A stretch of DNA of 64,000 bases from positions 49,228,001 through 49,292,000 of the forward strand of contig OZ024748.1 of assembly GCA_964016885.1 (NCBI GenBank). The letters run 5' to 3'. Made by a program: the position numbers and the translations under genes. The stretch comes from Eledone cirrhosa. Taxonomy: Eukaryota. Below the pieces are notes generated by a model, which saw only the letters and a program-made list of their open reading frames with translations, did no database searches and was not told the DNA's origin. This document shows positions 2,391 to 53,332 of the stretch, piece by piece; position 1 is the first letter of the stretch; the number at the start of each line of letters is the position of its first letter.

Positions 2391-5669
<3,279 letters not shown>

Positions 5670-5670
<1 letters not shown>

Positions 5671-6205
5671 ACTTTGAATAACTTTGAAATGTATTGGCCC
5701 AGGCCATGTCTAACTTAATAGCACCACCTGGCGAAGTCTTTCAATTCAGGATTTGGGCACCATGGCCCATTCGAGAAGAGAATTACTGTTTGCGGAGACA
5801 TATCCGGGTGTGGGTGGTTTGTCCGGGATTACTTGGAGGAATTTGTCCAAAGACTTCTTGAATTTTGTGTGGTCAGTTTCTGTTTTGACGTGTCCTGGTG
5901 TGATGTTGAAGAGAGCAGGGCCGATTGAGGTGAAATAATTGTGCCGTATTGTTGTTATGAGTTGCGATTTAGATTTTTGAATGGGACGGATAGCACGGGG
6001 CCCAAGCCTTGGTGTATCTTGAAGGCGATGCCAACATCATTTGGGCAGTGATGATGGAACATTTTCCACATCATGCAGATAATATAACGCTCACGGCGAC
6101 GTTGGAGTGAGTAAAGTTTCAGGTTTTCCAATCGACCCCAGTAGTCAAGGTCTGACATGCCATCTATCTTTTTCGTGATTGCCCTTTGAGGAGCTTCAAG
6201 TTTCA
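5670..6205 (-). mobile_element. 3' end of CR1/L2-group LINE
   Basis: [22 protein letters not shown]...FKKSLDKFLQVIPDKP; tandem ttcaaagtta tail; near-identical to 51272-51592. Confidence 0.8.
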
Positions 6206-6220
6206 TGATACTTGATACTT

Positions 6221-6314
<94 letters not shown>

Positions 6315-6360
6315 CATATATGTATATGTATGTATGTATGTATATATATGTATGTATATG

Positions 6361-6420
<60 letters not shown>

Positions 6421-6426
6421 TGTATG

Positions 6427-6512
<86 letters not shown>

Positions 6513-6518
6513 TGTATG

Positions 6519-6618
<100 letters not shown>

Positions 6619-6639
6619 TGTATGTATATATATATGTAT

Positions 6640-7247
6640 GGTCAGGTCACCAGTTGGTGCTACTGGTAACATGTATCCCAGTACAACCTGTCTCATGGTC
6701 GGGTCGTTGGCGACTAAACTGGCAACCCCACCAAGGTTTCTTGGTGAGGAGGGTGACTTTGGACATCCTACAGGACTAAAAACAAAACCTGTCAAAAGGG
6801 CAAAGGAGCTCTTAAGAGTCAATGGCCATCTAAAATCACCGGGAGAGATGACCCCTTAGCCTTTGTCAAGGCAGAATTCTAGGAGAAGGAAAACTCTGAT
6901 ATAACACCTGCAACCCTGATGGTATCCAATGATGTTGACTAGTTCTTCTTTTTGGTAAATATCATCTTGGTTAAGAGAGTGGGACTGGCTTTGTGCAGTG
7001 CCTTTGCTCACTATAAAAGCTTCACAGCACAGGCATTGCTTTATATCTGGAGATCTCTCTGCATTTGTCATCACGTGGTACCATGGGCCCAACACTATGT
7101 GTCAATAATTGTCACAAGTGTAGTGATTGTGCCAGTTTTCAAGTCGCTGGCTGGACTAAAAAGTCACACTCGTTCAGCGCATCGGTAGGGGTTCTCCTAC
7201 ATGGATATAAAGTAGTGGCCGTACTCGAAAACGAGTTGGCAGCCACC

Positions 7248-7250
<3 letters not shown>
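6640..7250 (+). mobile_element. ~600-bp non-autonomous repeat in (TATG)n with RTE-like 5' sequence
   Basis: Homologous to 42222-42838; contains ggagaaggaaaactctga, a motif typical of RTE 5' regions. Confidence 0.65.
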
Positions 7251-9990
<2,740 letters not shown>

Positions 9991-10320
9991 AAAATATTAA
10001 ACAAATAATGAACAAACAATTCCTTATATTAAACAAAAAAAGTTCATTATTTAACGATCGTTTCTAGGATATATATGTGTTATAATTGGTATGCATATTC
10101 AACAGATCTATGTACAAAATTATACAAAATTATACAAATTATCAAGATTAAATATACATACCAAACACATATATACGCCAATATTTTATCTTGACTCTGT
10201 ATACCGTTTATCTTTCACCGAAAGTCGTTTTTCATTGCATCTCTTCTTTCCATGATATCCGGAATACATTGAGTTCTTCATACGGATTGGACACTACCGT
10301 AAACTCTTGGTAGATTTATC

Positions 10321-12465
<2,145 letters not shown>

Positions 12466-13640: not shown

Positions 13641-13678
<38 letters not shown>

Positions 13679-13926
13679 CAATGGAATTGTGGTAAGGAAC
13701 CAGATGGACCATAACGCACCAGAGTACTCAATACTTAGGCTAGTAGAGTGGGAAATAGGAAAAAAAATATATATATGTCTGTTTCTCTCTCTCTCTCTCT
13801 TGGCAAGCTGTATATATGTAGATATATATATATATGTGTGTAAAAGGTAAACAGAAATAACAACACAATCGGTACAGTATATGGAAGGTATATAGTAGGT
13901 TAACGCTTGATATAGCAGGAAGAGGG

Positions 13927-13962
13927 TCTTAACGTTTCGGACGCTAGTCCTTCATCAGAAGA
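13927..13962 (-). ncRNA. Minimal type-I hammerhead ribozyme motif (Penelope-like element type)
   Basis: tctt CTGATGA a ggac-tagc-gtcc GAA ACGT T aaga: core, stems I and II, palindromic stem III. Confidence 0.7.
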
Positions 13963-17178: not shown

Positions 17179-17531
17179 ATGTAATAAACAATACAATATA
17201 ATTATTCCATTACCCAAGGTTTTGCGAAGTTAAACAATTCTAACAGAAACGTCTGATTTCATTCATCAGATATATGTATATTTTTATCTTTATTTTTATC
17301 TTCAATTTTATGTATGTGTGCATGTATATATATATGATTCTGTCTGTACATGTATTTTTTCTGTTATTTTAATTCAGCCTAACTTTCATTTGAAATAGAT
17401 TTTAATTTTGTATCTTATATCCATAATAAAGATATTTCATCTGATGAATGAAACCAGACGTTTCTGTTAGAATCATCTAACTTCGCGAAACCTTGAGTAA
17501 TGGAATAATTATATTGAGTTGTTTATTACAT
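17179..17531. mobile_element. MITE-like inverted-repeat element (TGTAATAAACAA termini)
   Basis: ~90-bp imperfect arms; related termini at 38727-38873. Confidence 0.65.
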
Positions 17532-22967: not shown

Positions 22968-23124
22968 CATGGCTTAGACAGACTGTCACATTATGAGGTT
23001 AGAGGAATCAGGTGACCATATCTTACTTCATACATTCCATTTTGGGTTTGGTTTCCTATTGGGAACTCTTTTCATTGTGCCACCACTATTACTTAACAGG
23101 ATGGACTGGGTACTTTTCTGTTGT

Positions 23125-23383
23125 GGCACCAGCACGACCACCTTAACAGAGTGGACTGGGAACTTCTCTGTCATGGCACCAGCACGACCACCTTAACAGA
23201 GTGGACTGGGAACTTCTCTGTTGTGGCACCAGCACGACCACCTTAACAGAGTGGACTGGGAACTTCTCTGTCATGGCACAGCACGACCACCTTAACAGAG
23301 TGGACTGGGAACTTCTCTGTCGTGGCACGAACACGACCACCTTAACAGAGTGAACTGGGAACTTCTCTGTCATGGCACCAGCA
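23125..23383. repeat. 50-bp minisatellite, ~5 copies
   Basis: Unit ggcaccagcacgaccaccttaacagagtggactgggaacttctctgtcat. Confidence 0.92.
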
Positions 23384-23634
23384 CTGAGGGAGAGCAAGGA
23401 ACGTGTCATAGCAGTGGCCTTGAAGAAAAAAACAAAATGGGATAAGCACAACTAAAATGTTTTCAATGATAGGTCTATCCAATAATGATTTAAAACAAAA
23501 ATATCAACAGCTGTCAATTTCATCAGACCCCACTATCCCCTCTCCCTCATCAATATACAATACAAATCATCAAAATCTATGCCAGTATTTGGCTAATTAG
23601 TCACCTTTTATTCTTTTTTTTTAAAACTTTGCAG

Positions 23635-26546: not shown

Positions 26547-28395
26547 GACACACACATCCATACTGACATACGCAATGATGCACAGAGAGACACACACACA
26601 TCCATACTGACATACGCAATGATGCACAGAGAGACACACACACATCCATACTGACATACGCAATGACGCACAGAGAGACACACACACATCCATACTGACA
26701 TACGCAATGATGCACAGAGAGACACACACACATCCATACTGACATACGCAATGACGCACAGAGAGACACACACACATCCATACTGACATACGCAATGATG
26801 CACAGAGAGACACACACACATCCATACTGACATACGCAATGACGCACAGAGAGACACACACACATCCATACTGACATACGCAATGATGCACAGAGAGACA
26901 CACACACATCCATACTGACATACGCAATGACGCACAGAGAGACACACACACATCCATACTGACATACGCAATGATGCACAGAGAGACACACACACATCCA
27001 TACTGACATACGCAATGACGCACAGAGAGACACACACACATCCATACTGACATACGCAATGATGCACAGAGAGACACACACACATCCATACTGACATACG
27101 CAATGACGCACAGAGAGACACACACACATCCATACTGACATACGCAATGATGCACAGAGAGACACACACACATCCATACTGACATACGCAATGACGCACA
27201 GAGAGACACACACACATCCATACTGACATACGCAATGATGCACAGAGAGACACACACACATCCATACTGACATACGCAATGACGCACAGAGAGACACACA
27301 CACATCCATACTGACATACGCAATGACGCAGAGAGAGAGACACACACATCCATACTGACATACGCAATGACGCACAGAGAGACACACACACATCCATACT
27401 GACATACACAATGACGCACAGAGAGACACACACACATCCATACTGACATACGCAATGATGCACAGAGAGACACACACACATCCATACTGACATACACAAT
27501 GACGCACAGAGAGACACACACACATCCATACTGACATACGCAATGATGCACAGAGAGACACACACACATCCATACTGACATACGCAATGACGCACAGAGA
27601 GACACACACACATCCATACTGACATACGCAATGACGCAGAGAGAGAGACACACACATCCATACTGACATACGCAATGACGCACAGAGAGACACACACACA
27701 TCCATACTGACATACACAATGACGCACAGAGAGACACACACACATCCATACTGACATACACAATGACGCACAGAGAGACACACACACATCCATACTGACA
27801 TACACAATGACGCACAGAGAGACACACACACATCCATACTGACATACACAATGACGCACAGAGAGACACACACACATCCATACTGACATACGCAATGACG
27901 CACAGAGAGACACACACACATCCATACTGACATACACAATGACGCACACAGAGACACACACACATCCATACTGACATACACAATGACGCACAGAGAGACA
28001 CACACACATCCATACTGACATACACAATGACGCACAGAGAGACACACACACATCCATACTGACATACGCAATGACGCACAGAGAGACACACACACATCCA
28101 TACTGACATACACAATGACGCACAGAGAGACACACACACATCCATACTGACATACGCAATGACGCACAGAGAGACACACACATCCATACTGACATACACA
28201 ATGACGCACAGAGAGACACACACATCCATACTGACATACGCAATGACGCACAGAGAGACACACACACATCCATACTGACATACGCAATGACGCACAGAGA
28301 GACACACACACATCCATACTGACATACGCAATGGCGCACAGAGAGACACACACACATCCATACTGACATACGCAATGACGCACAGAGAGACACAC
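26547..28395. repeat. 44-bp minisatellite, ~42 copies
   Basis: Unit cacagagagacacacacacatccatactgacatacgcaatgaYg. Confidence 0.96.
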
Positions 28396-29402
28396 AGATA
28401 CTCACGTACACACATTGACACACAGACAGACACACACTCACACACAAACAAACACACATGCAGACACACACATTCACACACTGACTGACACACACTCATG
28501 CACTGACAGACATACACTCACACACTCACGCACAGACAAACACATTCACACACTGACTGACACAGACTCACGCACTGACAGACACACACTCATGCACTGA
28601 CAGACACACACTCACGCACAGACACACACTCACGCACAGACAAACACTCACACACTGACTGACACACACTCACGCACTGACTGACACACACTCACGCACT
28701 GACTGACACACACTCACGCACTGACTGACACACACTCACGCACTGACTGACACACACTCACGCACTGACTGACACACACTCACGCACTGACAGACACATA
28801 CTCACGCACAGACAAACACTCACACACTGACAGACACACATTCACACACTGACTGACACACACTCACGCACTGACAGACACACACTCACGCACTGACAGA
28901 CAGACACTCACACACACAGACACACACTCACGCACAGACAGACACACACTCACGCACTGACAGACACAGACACACACACTGACACACAATCACACCCTGA
29001 CACACACACACACACAGATACACACTGACAGACACATATATATATATAGATGCATATACACACACATACATAAACATATAGAGACTGACAGCCACCCACA
29101 TGTACAAATAATATATATATATATACACACACACACTCAGACACACAAATAAATATATAGATACACACACACACTCAAACACATACACAAATATATATAT
29201 ATACACACACATACATAAACATATAGAGACTGACAGCCACCCACATGTACAAATAATATATATATATATATATACACATACACACTCAGACACACACAAA
29301 TAAATATATAGATACACACACACACACACTCAAACACATACACAAATATATATACACACACATACATAAACATATAGAGACTGACAGCCACCCACATGTA
29401 CA

Positions 29403-38691: not shown

Positions 38692-38727
<36 letters not shown>

Positions 38728-38940
38728 GTAATAAACAACATAAGGCAATTATTCCATTTACCAGTGGTTTCTTAAAAGCAAAAAATGTTGCTTTCAATCA
38801 TCAGAATGAAAAAATCCTGGCGTATTTATTGACGTTGGATTTTAAAATAATTGCCTTATGTTGTTTATTACATAACTATTAATCTCTGTTACCTACATAG
38901 AGCACTCTTTTTTCCTGGACTTTTCCGACGGAATTACTTC

Positions 38941-45572: not shown

Positions 45573-46135
45573 ACAAAGTTTGTTTTATAAATTTTGACAT
45601 AACCAAGAAAAGATACCTTAACGGTTCAAGTTTTTCTTGGATAGTGAAGGGAAAAGAGAAGAAAAGTCAGATATTTCAAATTATTAAGATGAGTATGCAA
45701 ATAACAAAGAGGTTGTGGTAAGATACCAGGTGGACCATACGCAGCAGAGTACTCAATACTTTGGGTAGTTGAGTGGGTGATAGGAAAAGAGTCAGGACCC
45801 CGATCTCGCTGTCGAAACGGCGGAGCTCAGCCGTCGGAGTCCTGACTCTTTTCCTATATATATATTATTGGCAACATGACCCTCCCAAAGTATAACAATA
45901 TATATATATATATAAATATAAATATATATATATATATTTATATTTATATATATTACTTTAATCCGACTCATTCAACTATTAATTATTATTATCTGCATTG
46001 TGGCCGCTTCTCAGAAAAGCAAACATTTTCAAATTTCCCCAATGCTTTGACTGCATGCGTGTATGTGTGTGTGTGTGTGTGTAGCGCGTGTGTGCGTGCG
46101 TGTGTGTGTGTGTGTGTGTGTGTGCGTGCGTGCGC

Positions 46136-49236: not shown

Positions 49237-49283
<47 letters not shown>

Positions 49284-49288
<5 letters not shown>

Positions 49289-49445
49289 AACGAGTAGGAC
49301 CCCGACGGCTGAGCTCAAGCCGTTTCGACGGCTTGAGCTCAGCCGTCGGGGTCCTACTCGTTCCTATTACCCACTCTACTACCCTAAGTATTGAGTACTT
49401 TGGTGCGTTATGGTCCACCTGGTTCCTTACCACATTTCCTTCGTT
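49284..49445 (-). mobile_element. TA-inserted ~160-bp element with 40-bp terminal hairpin (copies 45705-45856, partial 13676-13765)
   Basis: Shared body gtggtaaggaaccaggtggaccataacgcacc...gtactcaatact; perfect stem 49284-49323 / 49328-49367. Confidence 0.8.
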
Positions 49446-49456
49446 ATATATATATA

Positions 49457-49526
<70 letters not shown>

Positions 49527-50092
49527 ATCTGAGTCTTTCGAATATTAATAATAATTTTGGATTCGTTTGCAATTATGCAATTATGCAAATGAATCGAATC
49601 GAAAGACTCACGTTACATTTATTGTATTCAGCCATGTAGAGCGAGCGATAAACGATTTGTTATATATATATATATCTCAATGAGGTTTTCACATAGAATC
49701 TACTTGAGAATGTGCAAAATAGACTAACGAAACCATCTCTGGCCTGTCTGTTTGTCTTTCTGTTTGTCTGTCCGTCTGTCCGTCTAGTTGCTTGCCTCTC
49801 TGCACTGTTGAGCAAGAAGACAATACAACAGAGAATACGAGAAGAAAATGTATAAAACATGATATAATTAGTAGTTTGTATCACTTGAGGGAGTTTGTGG
49901 CGGTAACTGAGGAGATAAAAGACCTGTTGGACCAGAAACACCAGATACCCCACCCCACAATCACACACGCAAAACAGAAGGGAAGAAAGTGTGTGCGTGC
50001 GCATAAAGTATACAGATGTGTATCATATATGTGTGTGTAAAGCATATAACTATATATATATATAGATGTATATACAGTATATATGTATATAG

Positions 50093-50324: not shown

Positions 50325-50416
50325 GTATATGTATATAAATATATATATATAAAAACAAATAACGAAACGAAATTAAATTTCGTTTCGTTTGTAACTCACT
50401 TTTGTATGACTGACGC

Positions 50417-50838
50417 TTAAACAATTAAGTTAAAAATGTACATCCACATATGTATACTGAAATACTAGTATGCATATGAATACACACACGTATACATATG
50501 TAGATGTACCGAGTTTTTCACTGGTCACTTTACTGTGAGTGTCCAGCTATTCTGAATGTAAACACAAATATTGCTGATGAGATGTAACAACATCGAAACT
50601 AGTTCAATATTCCTTGTCTGGCTTTCTGGAGAATAGAGGAAAGGTGTTTCCTCAAAAACCAGTATGACTCTAAAAACCGGTTTGTCTGTGTGTTTACATA
50701 CAGAATAGCTGGACACTCACAGTAAAGTGACCAGTGAAAAACTCGGTACATCTACATATGTATACGTGTGTGTATTCATATGCATACTAGTATTTCAGTA
50801 TACATATGTGGATGTACATTTTTAACTTAATTGTTTAA
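50417..50838. repeat. 150-bp inverted repeat (arms 50417-50566 and 50689-50838) with 122-bp spacer
   Basis: Arms are reverse complements with one mismatch seen. Confidence 0.92.
50567..50611 (+). ncRNA. Type-I hammerhead ribozyme motif within an inverted repeat
   Basis: aatattg CTGATGA gatg-taacaa-catc GAA ACTAGT T caatatt; perfect 7-bp stem I. Confidence 0.8.
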
Positions 50839-52585: not shown

Positions 52586-52752
52586 AAAACAACTCAAAAT
52601 GTACACCCCCCCCCCCTCCCCCTAGCATTACATTATCTGCATGATGTGGAAAATATTCCATCAGCATTGACCAAATGATGTTAGCATCATCTTGAAAATA
52701 CACCTAATTCGTCGGTTCATCGGCCCCGTGCCGACAACAAAAATGAAGCTCA

Positions 52753-53200
52753 CATTAACACACACAGACATGTACATACGAACATACACCAAACAGAATA
52801 CACGCACACATTAACACACACAGACATGTACATACGAACATACACCAAACAGAATACATACACACATTAACACACACAGACATGTACATACACCAAACAG
52901 AATACACGCACACATTAACACACACAGACATGTACATACGAACATACACCAAACAGAATACTTACACACATTAACACACACAGACATGTACACACCAACA
53001 TACACCAAACAGAATACACGCACACATTAACACACACAGACATGTACATACGAACATACACCAAACAGAATACACACACACATTAACACACACAGACATG
53101 TACATACGAACATACACCAAACAGAATACACGCACACATTAACACAGACAGACATGTACATACCGACATACACCAAACAGAATACACACACACATTAACA
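52753..53200. repeat. 56-bp minisatellite, ~8 copies
   Basis: Unit ttaacacacacagacatgtacatacgaacatacaccaaacagaatacacgcacaca. Confidence 0.92.
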
Positions 53201-53332
53201 CACGAACATACACACAAAGGCACAGACAGAGACAACAATAAATAAATAAGTAAAATAGAATAAGAAAACATTACAGGAATGCAACGGGAGGAAACAGAAA
53301 CATCACTGATGATGTCACGGCGGTAGGAGGGA

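Follow-up and report, generated by a model that had tools for sequence, protein, structure and literature searches.

A perfect hairpin in a (TA)n microsatellite of Eledone cirrhosa is a stub of the 3' end of a Penelope-like retroelement

The window, as we call the whole 64,000-nucleotide stretch of Eledone cirrhosa DNA analyzed here (contig OZ024748.1, positions 49,228,001 to 49,292,000), comes from a (TA)n-rich genome of 3.0 Gb and contains a perfect 40-bp inverted repeat (49284-49323 and 49328-49367) closed by a TTCG loop. The stem had been noted in a preliminary description of this DNA and is borne out by an inverted-repeat search and by folding (DNA fold z = -18, with 0 of 200 shuffles equally good). 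Except for a 14-bp stem at 50361, it is the sole perfect, non-simple hairpin of at least 12 bp in the window, and the 3 bp at its outer end are common to the TA flank. The insert itself spans 159 bp (49287-49445), within which an inverted copy lies head-to-head with a sense copy that is followed by an 81-bp tail:

49241..49286, no strand: (TA)n target microsatellite, left flank
49287..49333, minus strand: inverted, 5'-truncated copy of the end of a Penelope-like element (PLE), 47 nt (halves: 47 nt short-end, 37 nt tail)
49328..49333, no strand: 6-bp microhomology at the inversion junction
49328..49364, plus strand: sense copy of the PLE pseudo-LTR end, hammerhead-like as predicted from sequence
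49365..49445, plus strand: 81-bp tail between two fixed ends
49446..49523, no strand: (TA)n right flank

The inverted half, loop included, terminates without a tail at a fixed short end, TTCC/TA (slashes mark boundaries). Along the sense half follow a hammerhead-like stem III, a predicted cut after 49347 (GUC), the 3' strand of stem I, and a subfamily-specific segment that runs to the short end. The 6-bp microhomology exists because the element contains a small palindrome, AGCCGT-CGAA-ACGGCT, of which it is a by-product. The last 118 bp (49328-49445) are 100% identical to the end of copy L386, in which the C-terminus of an endonuclease lies about 1.2 kb upstream of that end. Thus, the plus strand is the element sense for the second arm and the tail, and the first arm is an inverted, truncated second copy. 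In a genome search, all 40 scored matches were 97-100% identical across the full 159 bp (three at 100%, including the window copy), and all 30 of the near-identical 159-bp copies that were fetched sit in TA repeats. We conclude that the insert is a real feature of a known kind, a stub of a PLE 3' end.

Two further stubs of the family lie in the window:

45703..45854, minus strand: second stub (subfamily C), in which the tail and 21 nt more adjoin an inverted short-end half about 53 nt long
13677..13764, minus strand: third stub (subfamily B), consisting of the tail and about 7 nt more, without an inverted half

They are 80% and 92% identical, respectively, to the 49284 copy. Searches with both recovered the 81-bp segment, an adjoining inverted repeat, a variable interior, and a second repeat at the far end. 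A copy near 45705 had been reported with arms differing from those at 49284; it exists, and its arms differ as described, but its stem comprises only 19 outer bp with one mismatch, the interior being imperfect. Its tail-side half ends about 2 nt beyond the predicted hammerhead cut. No (TA)n run adjoins its tail end, contrary to the statement that all copies border one. The hairpin-less copy reported at 13676 is likewise present; it is a tail-only, 5'-truncated insertion of another subfamily and not a copy that lost its hairpin.

The window also holds other structures at TA runs. An unrelated family is represented by a second fold-back stub (49524-49660) on the same TA run as the 49284 stub, with a 20-bp inverted repeat from the TA edge and a one-sided tail of about 45 bp containing GTAGAGC; related sequence flanks copies L177 and L191. 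Another stub (38724-38940) has a 33-bp inverted repeat at the TA edge and a one-sided extension with TAGAGCACT, a motif that is also found after the tail of the studied family. At 50352-50837, a 150-bp inverted repeat (99%) reaches up to a TA run and includes a perfect 14-bp hairpin (50361-50389); it is probably a further inverted insertion. Canonical CUGANGA...GAAA hammerhead-type motifs, matched by regular expression only, occur at 13958 and 14288 (minus) and at 17441, 38259, 50574, and 53338 (plus), and are likely to be the ends of other PLE families. The remaining repeats include a 10-kb TA-rich array (2394-12463) and minisatellites of 50, 44 (42 copies), and 56 bp (23092-23384, 26548-28396, and 52751-53203).

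The class of the element had been left unclear in the preliminary description, which proposed looking for an autonomous partner with the same terminus. Long copies settle the class: they carry a reverse transcriptase (RT; YRDDG), a CNCx5C linker, and a GIY-YIG endonuclease (VIY..YIG), then a 3' untranslated region (UTR), and then the same ends as the stub. YRDDG and VIY..YIG..R..H..E..N are present in natural copies (L096, L152, and L212) and are conserved across 75 aligned homologs; every long copy read has breaks. Copy L201 has the pseudo-LTR arrangement expected of a PLE, with the end motif flanking the open reading frame (ORF) at 2046 and 5172 and a tandem unit of 3,126 bp, and several of copies L171-L200 likewise carry pseudo-LTR tandems. 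In tandem copies that bear the ORF start, the same end lies upstream of the ORF, and the tail is followed directly by the next unit, some 100 nt upstream of the ATG.

The protein contains RLRWR, HSDKTG, CNCPDRSTC, CNLC, and CKH, matching the markers RW(R/K), DKT, CxCx5C, CxxC, and CxH given for the Hydra clade in the clade description of PMC8557442. Among the best 120 of 1,320 relatives from a protein search, nearly all of them unnamed, RW[KR] occurs in 109 and CxCx5C in 111. Compared by eye with the published alignment, these motifs assign the element to the Hydra-clade PLEs. Pfam searches with the element and homolog proteins gave no meaningful match and did not return PF26215 or PF28514, which are listed for relatives; a PDB sequence search with the element protein found none. 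An AlphaFold model of the protein (mean pLDDT 78, pTM 0.47) gave weak RT matches only in Foldseek (best E 0.029). A literature search found no paper on the family, and the available portions of PMC13282606 and bioRxiv 10.64898/2026.07.22.740005 do not describe it. The family is probably undescribed or merely auto-annotated, and Repbase or Dfam may already contain it.

Both ends of the element are fixed. The tail measures 81 bp in 234 of 269 tail copies, and the tail end runs into a TA repeat in 240 of these 269 and into a next unit in 16. Inverted 5'-truncated copies with a tail at one end only, as well as the (TA)n target, are among the published PLE and Hydra-clade features in the parts of PMC8557442 concerned, the supplement of which lists Hydra-1_Obim and gives (TA)n as the target of nearly all Hydra-clade members; the present family has both traits. 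Exact genome counts gave 465 hairpin junctions, 62,608 arm motifs, and 42,845 tail motifs, with 0 for reversed controls. The bulk of the tail copies, which number at least 43,000, are stubs of 130-250 bp. An AGT..GAG..ACT motif occurs 22 and 19 nt after the two ends; it showed no covariation within the studied family. In two insertions (L398 and L174), the tail is found on both sides, so both strands can start at the tail end. At seven loci (L022, L036, L043, L086, L155, L157, and L405), several stubs, often of different subfamilies, are stacked in one TA tract or within a few hundred bases; new TA flanks may draw further insertions.

The arm is half of a predicted hammerhead-like fold. Upstream of the arm, long copies have the order stem I, UUGANAA, a long stem II, GAAA, stem III, GUC, and the returning strand of stem I, a type I layout that, fitted by hand, pairs 92.7% of cells. 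The TTCG loop of the 49284 stub is the antisense of C-GAA at the core junction of this fold. The core is U3-A8 in 107 of 151 copies and C3.A8 in 41, the latter in all 27 long copies of the window's subfamily. Between subfamilies, both partners of three stem II pairs differ, each probably through a single event; any structural selection would thus act on the hammerhead-like RNA fold and not on the 40-bp stem. Rfam searches of the window and of copy L179 returned no hammerhead and nothing else relevant, and RNAalifold favors a rival, small CGAA-capped local hairpin over the hammerhead layout. Halves that end 16-20 nt from the short end, around the predicted cut at 17, number 10 of 133, versus 3 at 9-15 and 8 at 21-35, a distribution that local CG overlap could favor too. 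Five copies (L395, L170, L367, L392, and L382) have internal deletions between two GACGGC/GCCGTC repeats of the hammerhead region, about 26 nt off one arm, which suggests template slipping by RT.

We show that the two arms of one insertion are far more alike than arms from different insertions. Among 182 parsed insertions (a sample in which query-like copies are over-represented and L205 appears twice), both arms read the same in 111 and differ by one change in 43, whereas 11.8% of shuffled pairs are identical. In an unbiased subset, the arms are identical in 18 of 31 and one change apart in 8, versus 12.9% in shuffles. At least 27 of the first 30 hairpin junctions have the same haplotype on both arms (by eye), and rare variants are mirrored on both arms in L016, L332, L337, and L168. 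The differences between the 45703 copy and the one at 49287 are markers of subfamilies C and A1. The preliminary description had named subfamilies of a MITE or SINE that explain the arm differences as the outcome that would tell against it; subfamilies do explain them, those of a PLE.

Changes that arose later fall mostly on a single arm: in the 30 closest copies, 15 affect one arm and 1 is mirrored, which argues that the 40-bp stem is not under selection. The earlier suggestion that the hairpin is maintained by selection on structure is thus not supported. Its alternative, that the hairpin is regenerated at insertion, is largely supported by the shared subfamily of the arms, although simple fold-back is not general, given the insertions with a longer short-end half described below. 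In L041, L087, and L278, the arms have different subfamily segments beside the short end (by eye). Such insertions may reflect two-RNA events or later conversion, and one RNA is therefore not the sole route; same-subfamily arms could also stem from two RNAs of one dominant source locus.

To describe the junctions, we used an unbiased tail set comprising 70 tail-motif copies from one end of contig C1 and those in 590 kb at round-number positions. In 54 of these 88 copies, an automatic parser detected a directly adjoining inverted short-end half, and visual reading adds more; the remaining 34 include some parser misses and some truly non-inverted copies, and several lengths were mis-called in both directions. 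Among 51 auto-parsed insertions, 28 have a short-end half that exceeds the tail half, 16 show the reverse, and 7 have halves of equal length; the overlap at the junction is 0-2 nt in 27. Long copies also include cases with a longer short-end half (L066, 197 versus 116; L296, 252 versus 101; and L189, 385 versus 169). The perfect hairpin is one junction among many, amounting to under 1% of the arm matches. Of its first 30 examples, 14 show the window's loop orientation and 16 the opposite one, and at least six haplotypes or sub-lineages are represented; the hairpin junction has thus formed repeatedly, at the 6-bp overlap. Strand-switch joints in contigs were too few for junction mapping.

The insert consists of two head-to-head copies of the PLE 3' end, probably made from one RNA by two cDNAs primed on a nicked TA repeat. 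The GIY-YIG endonuclease would nick both strands of (TA)n, and each 3'-OH would prime reverse transcription, one at the tail end (GTT/A) and the other at the short end (TTCC/TA), at start points 81 nt apart. Both cDNAs would mostly stop 50-64 nt upstream of the short end, after which the two free cDNA ends would be joined by end-joining with 0-2 nt of overlap. Joining via the 6-nt AGCCGT/ACGGCT overlap around the hammerhead GAAA would produce the perfect 40-bp hairpin. The arms would then mirror each other because both copy the same template and not because the stem is selected. The longer short-end halves and the 0-2 nt overlaps fit two cDNAs from opposite strands and not fold-back of one tail-primed cDNA.

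These inferred steps parallel those of PAc, a Poseidon-clade PLE of Anolis carolinensis (Frangieh et al. 2024, PMC11167929). In the sections of that study on the purified protein, both DNA strands of an AT-rich target are cut and extended, RT starts at two internal sites bracketing the tail, and the RNA spans the pLTR-ORF junction; the same arrangement is proposed here. The present element belongs to another clade, and both of its starts lie upstream of the likely ATG, with TA matching the target at each, whereas the PAc starts are reported there as not homologous to the cut DNA.

Inverted halves could also be made by self-priming, whereby a local palindrome lets a cDNA or an antisense template fold onto itself and be extended along its own sequence; palindromes at inverted junctions of rotifer Penelopes are read in this way in the pertinent part of PMC3846280. 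The window junction does lie on a 6-bp mini-hairpin, which is also predicted by RNAalifold, and the mirrored private variants agree with this route. However, most junctions have overlaps of 0-2 nt without a palindrome, and the hairpin junction is rare among arm matches. Tail-primed fold-back cannot yield the longer short-end halves seen in the 28 auto-parsed insertions and in long copies, and the TTCG loop of the window copy is on the wrong strand for it. Fold-back of a short-end cDNA cannot provide the tail; followed by annealing, it would give the same perfect-hairpin product and may explain this minority. As an account of the stubs in general, we consider self-priming unlikely.

It is still less probable that the 159-bp form stands alone as a non-autonomous element (resembling a SINE, MITE, or retrozyme) that is amplified as a unit and needs its hairpin for mobility. 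The near-identity of the 40 scored matches over the whole insert would suit such an element, and some secondary mobilization of stubs may occur, but the junction exists in both orientations and on six or more haplotypes, the same as occur in long copies. It also accounts for a very small share of arm matches, one-arm mutations build up freely, and no Rfam family is found in the window. As specific candidates, a MITE was rejected on the grounds that one repeat lies 81 bp inside the end and that repeat and element lengths vary continuously, as opposed to fixed-length inverted repeats at both termini, and a SINE on the grounds of no Rfam match in the window, variable 5' ends, and a sequence that is the end of a coding PLE. 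A third rival, that the stub arose by deletion within a DNA element with asymmetric inverted repeats (of the Helentron/HINE, DIRS-like, or foldback type), is scarcely credible. The layout recalls such elements in having one inverted repeat at a terminus, another in a subterminal position, and an interior of apparently variable length, yet the "interior" is PLE 3' UTR and RT/endonuclease coding sequence in either orientation relative to the tail, the repeat ranges from about 17 bp to over 800 bp, and tandem pseudo-LTR copies exist. No Rep/helicase, recombinase, or transposase was found in the translated long copies. Helentrons and HINEs have short asymmetric subterminal repeats and a Rep-helicase partner; they were rejected here, where repeats of up to over 800 bp are made of PLE sequence and the partner is RT/GIY-YIG.

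Two cDNAs with separate starts, the origin we prefer, nonetheless end at a shared position. Of 133 halves, 72 have their end point 50-64 nt upstream of the short end, and just 11 reach beyond this interval; the parser behind these counts under-counts long inverted halves. Both cDNA types stop at one position despite starts 81 nt apart; thus, the cause is positional. In one public DNA sample, possibly the assembly's own, contig depth across the stop point rises about ten-fold, and fifteen- to twenty-fold in a further run, summed contig depth being a rough measure. Most copies of all three subfamilies have a TTAGT motif at the stop point, which may resemble an initiator. The D. virilis Penelope has an internal TATA-less promoter (PMC2377424, in the part dealing with transcription), and the stop point here perhaps marks the 5' end of the RNA.

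A tentative reading, which we hold to be somewhat less probable than its negation, is that the stubs correspond, in a PLE, to the strong-stop DNA of retroviruses. An RT dimer would begin at two starts near the 5' end of one RNA and run off about 58-62 nt upstream of the short end, at TTAGT; full-length and tandem copies would arise only by a cDNA jump to the 3' pseudo-LTR. A literature search found no strong-stop step reported for PLEs. The main alternative is an RT pause at an RNA structure or bound protein. Of 24 parsed copies that bear the ORF start, 1 begins near the stop point and 14 extend past it, so that a start site at this position needs a template jump. An extra C after the 58th nucleotide, a cap signature, was seen in 16 cases among 213 halves reaching that base; the partner half could explain it. 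A splice acceptor at TTTAG/TCCAG was rejected, since the junctions have no constant upstream exon.

With the Hydra clade, as characterized in the relevant sections of Craig et al. 2021 (PMC8557442; Hydra-1_Obim of Octopus bimaculoides and Penelope-13_HM), the element shares RW(R/K), DKT, the CxCx5C linker, CxxC and CxH around conserved E and N, a C-terminal GIY-YIG, and the (TA)n target; near the 3' end, where the clade has a hammerhead, it has a predicted hammerhead-like fold, and a 5'-truncated inverted copy is also found in Penelope-13_HM. It is a different family from Hydra-1_Obim, with a different N-terminus and hammerhead when compared by eye with the supplement. Its unit of about 3.1 kb, its long 3' UTR, and its 81-bp tail, as against 30-40, are unlike those usual in the clade, and unlike canonical CUGANGA motifs with tiny loops its predicted fold has a U3-A8 or C3.A8 core, a stem III of 5-6 bp, and a loop of 7-9 nt. 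The portions of Cervera and de la Peña 2014 (PMC4209133) on Schistosoma Cercyon PLEs describe hammerheads with the same U3-A8 core covariation and paired motifs 100-700 bp apart on opposite strands, also seen here; the motifs there are minimal and dimer-type, in contrast to the long stem II and full stem III of the present fold. Head-to-head inverted ends, a one-sided tail, palindromes at some junctions, and partial tandems are shared with Penelopes of Adineta vaga and Drosophila virilis in the insertions described in PMC3846280 and PMC2377424. Those are low-copy and mostly ORF-bearing, whereas stubs of 130-250 bp predominate here.

In itself, the 49284 hairpin is unremarkable, a leftover of a retroelement class already known, and its proper annotation is a PLE end; naming a new SINE or MITE family for it would be wrong. 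Such stubs might easily be mislabeled in automated repeat libraries; for Octopus vulgaris, 893 unclassified SINE families are given in PMC13282606. The value of the stubs lies in the data they offer on the PLE mechanism. In a young family with at least 43,000 tail copies, start sites, stop sites, overlaps, and one- versus two-template events can be counted, and the stop position predicts where the RNA begins. If the strong-stop reading is true, about nine in ten events fail the jump and are sealed as hairpin stubs. The genome would then preserve tens of thousands of examples of an intermediate that has yet to be demonstrated in a PLE.
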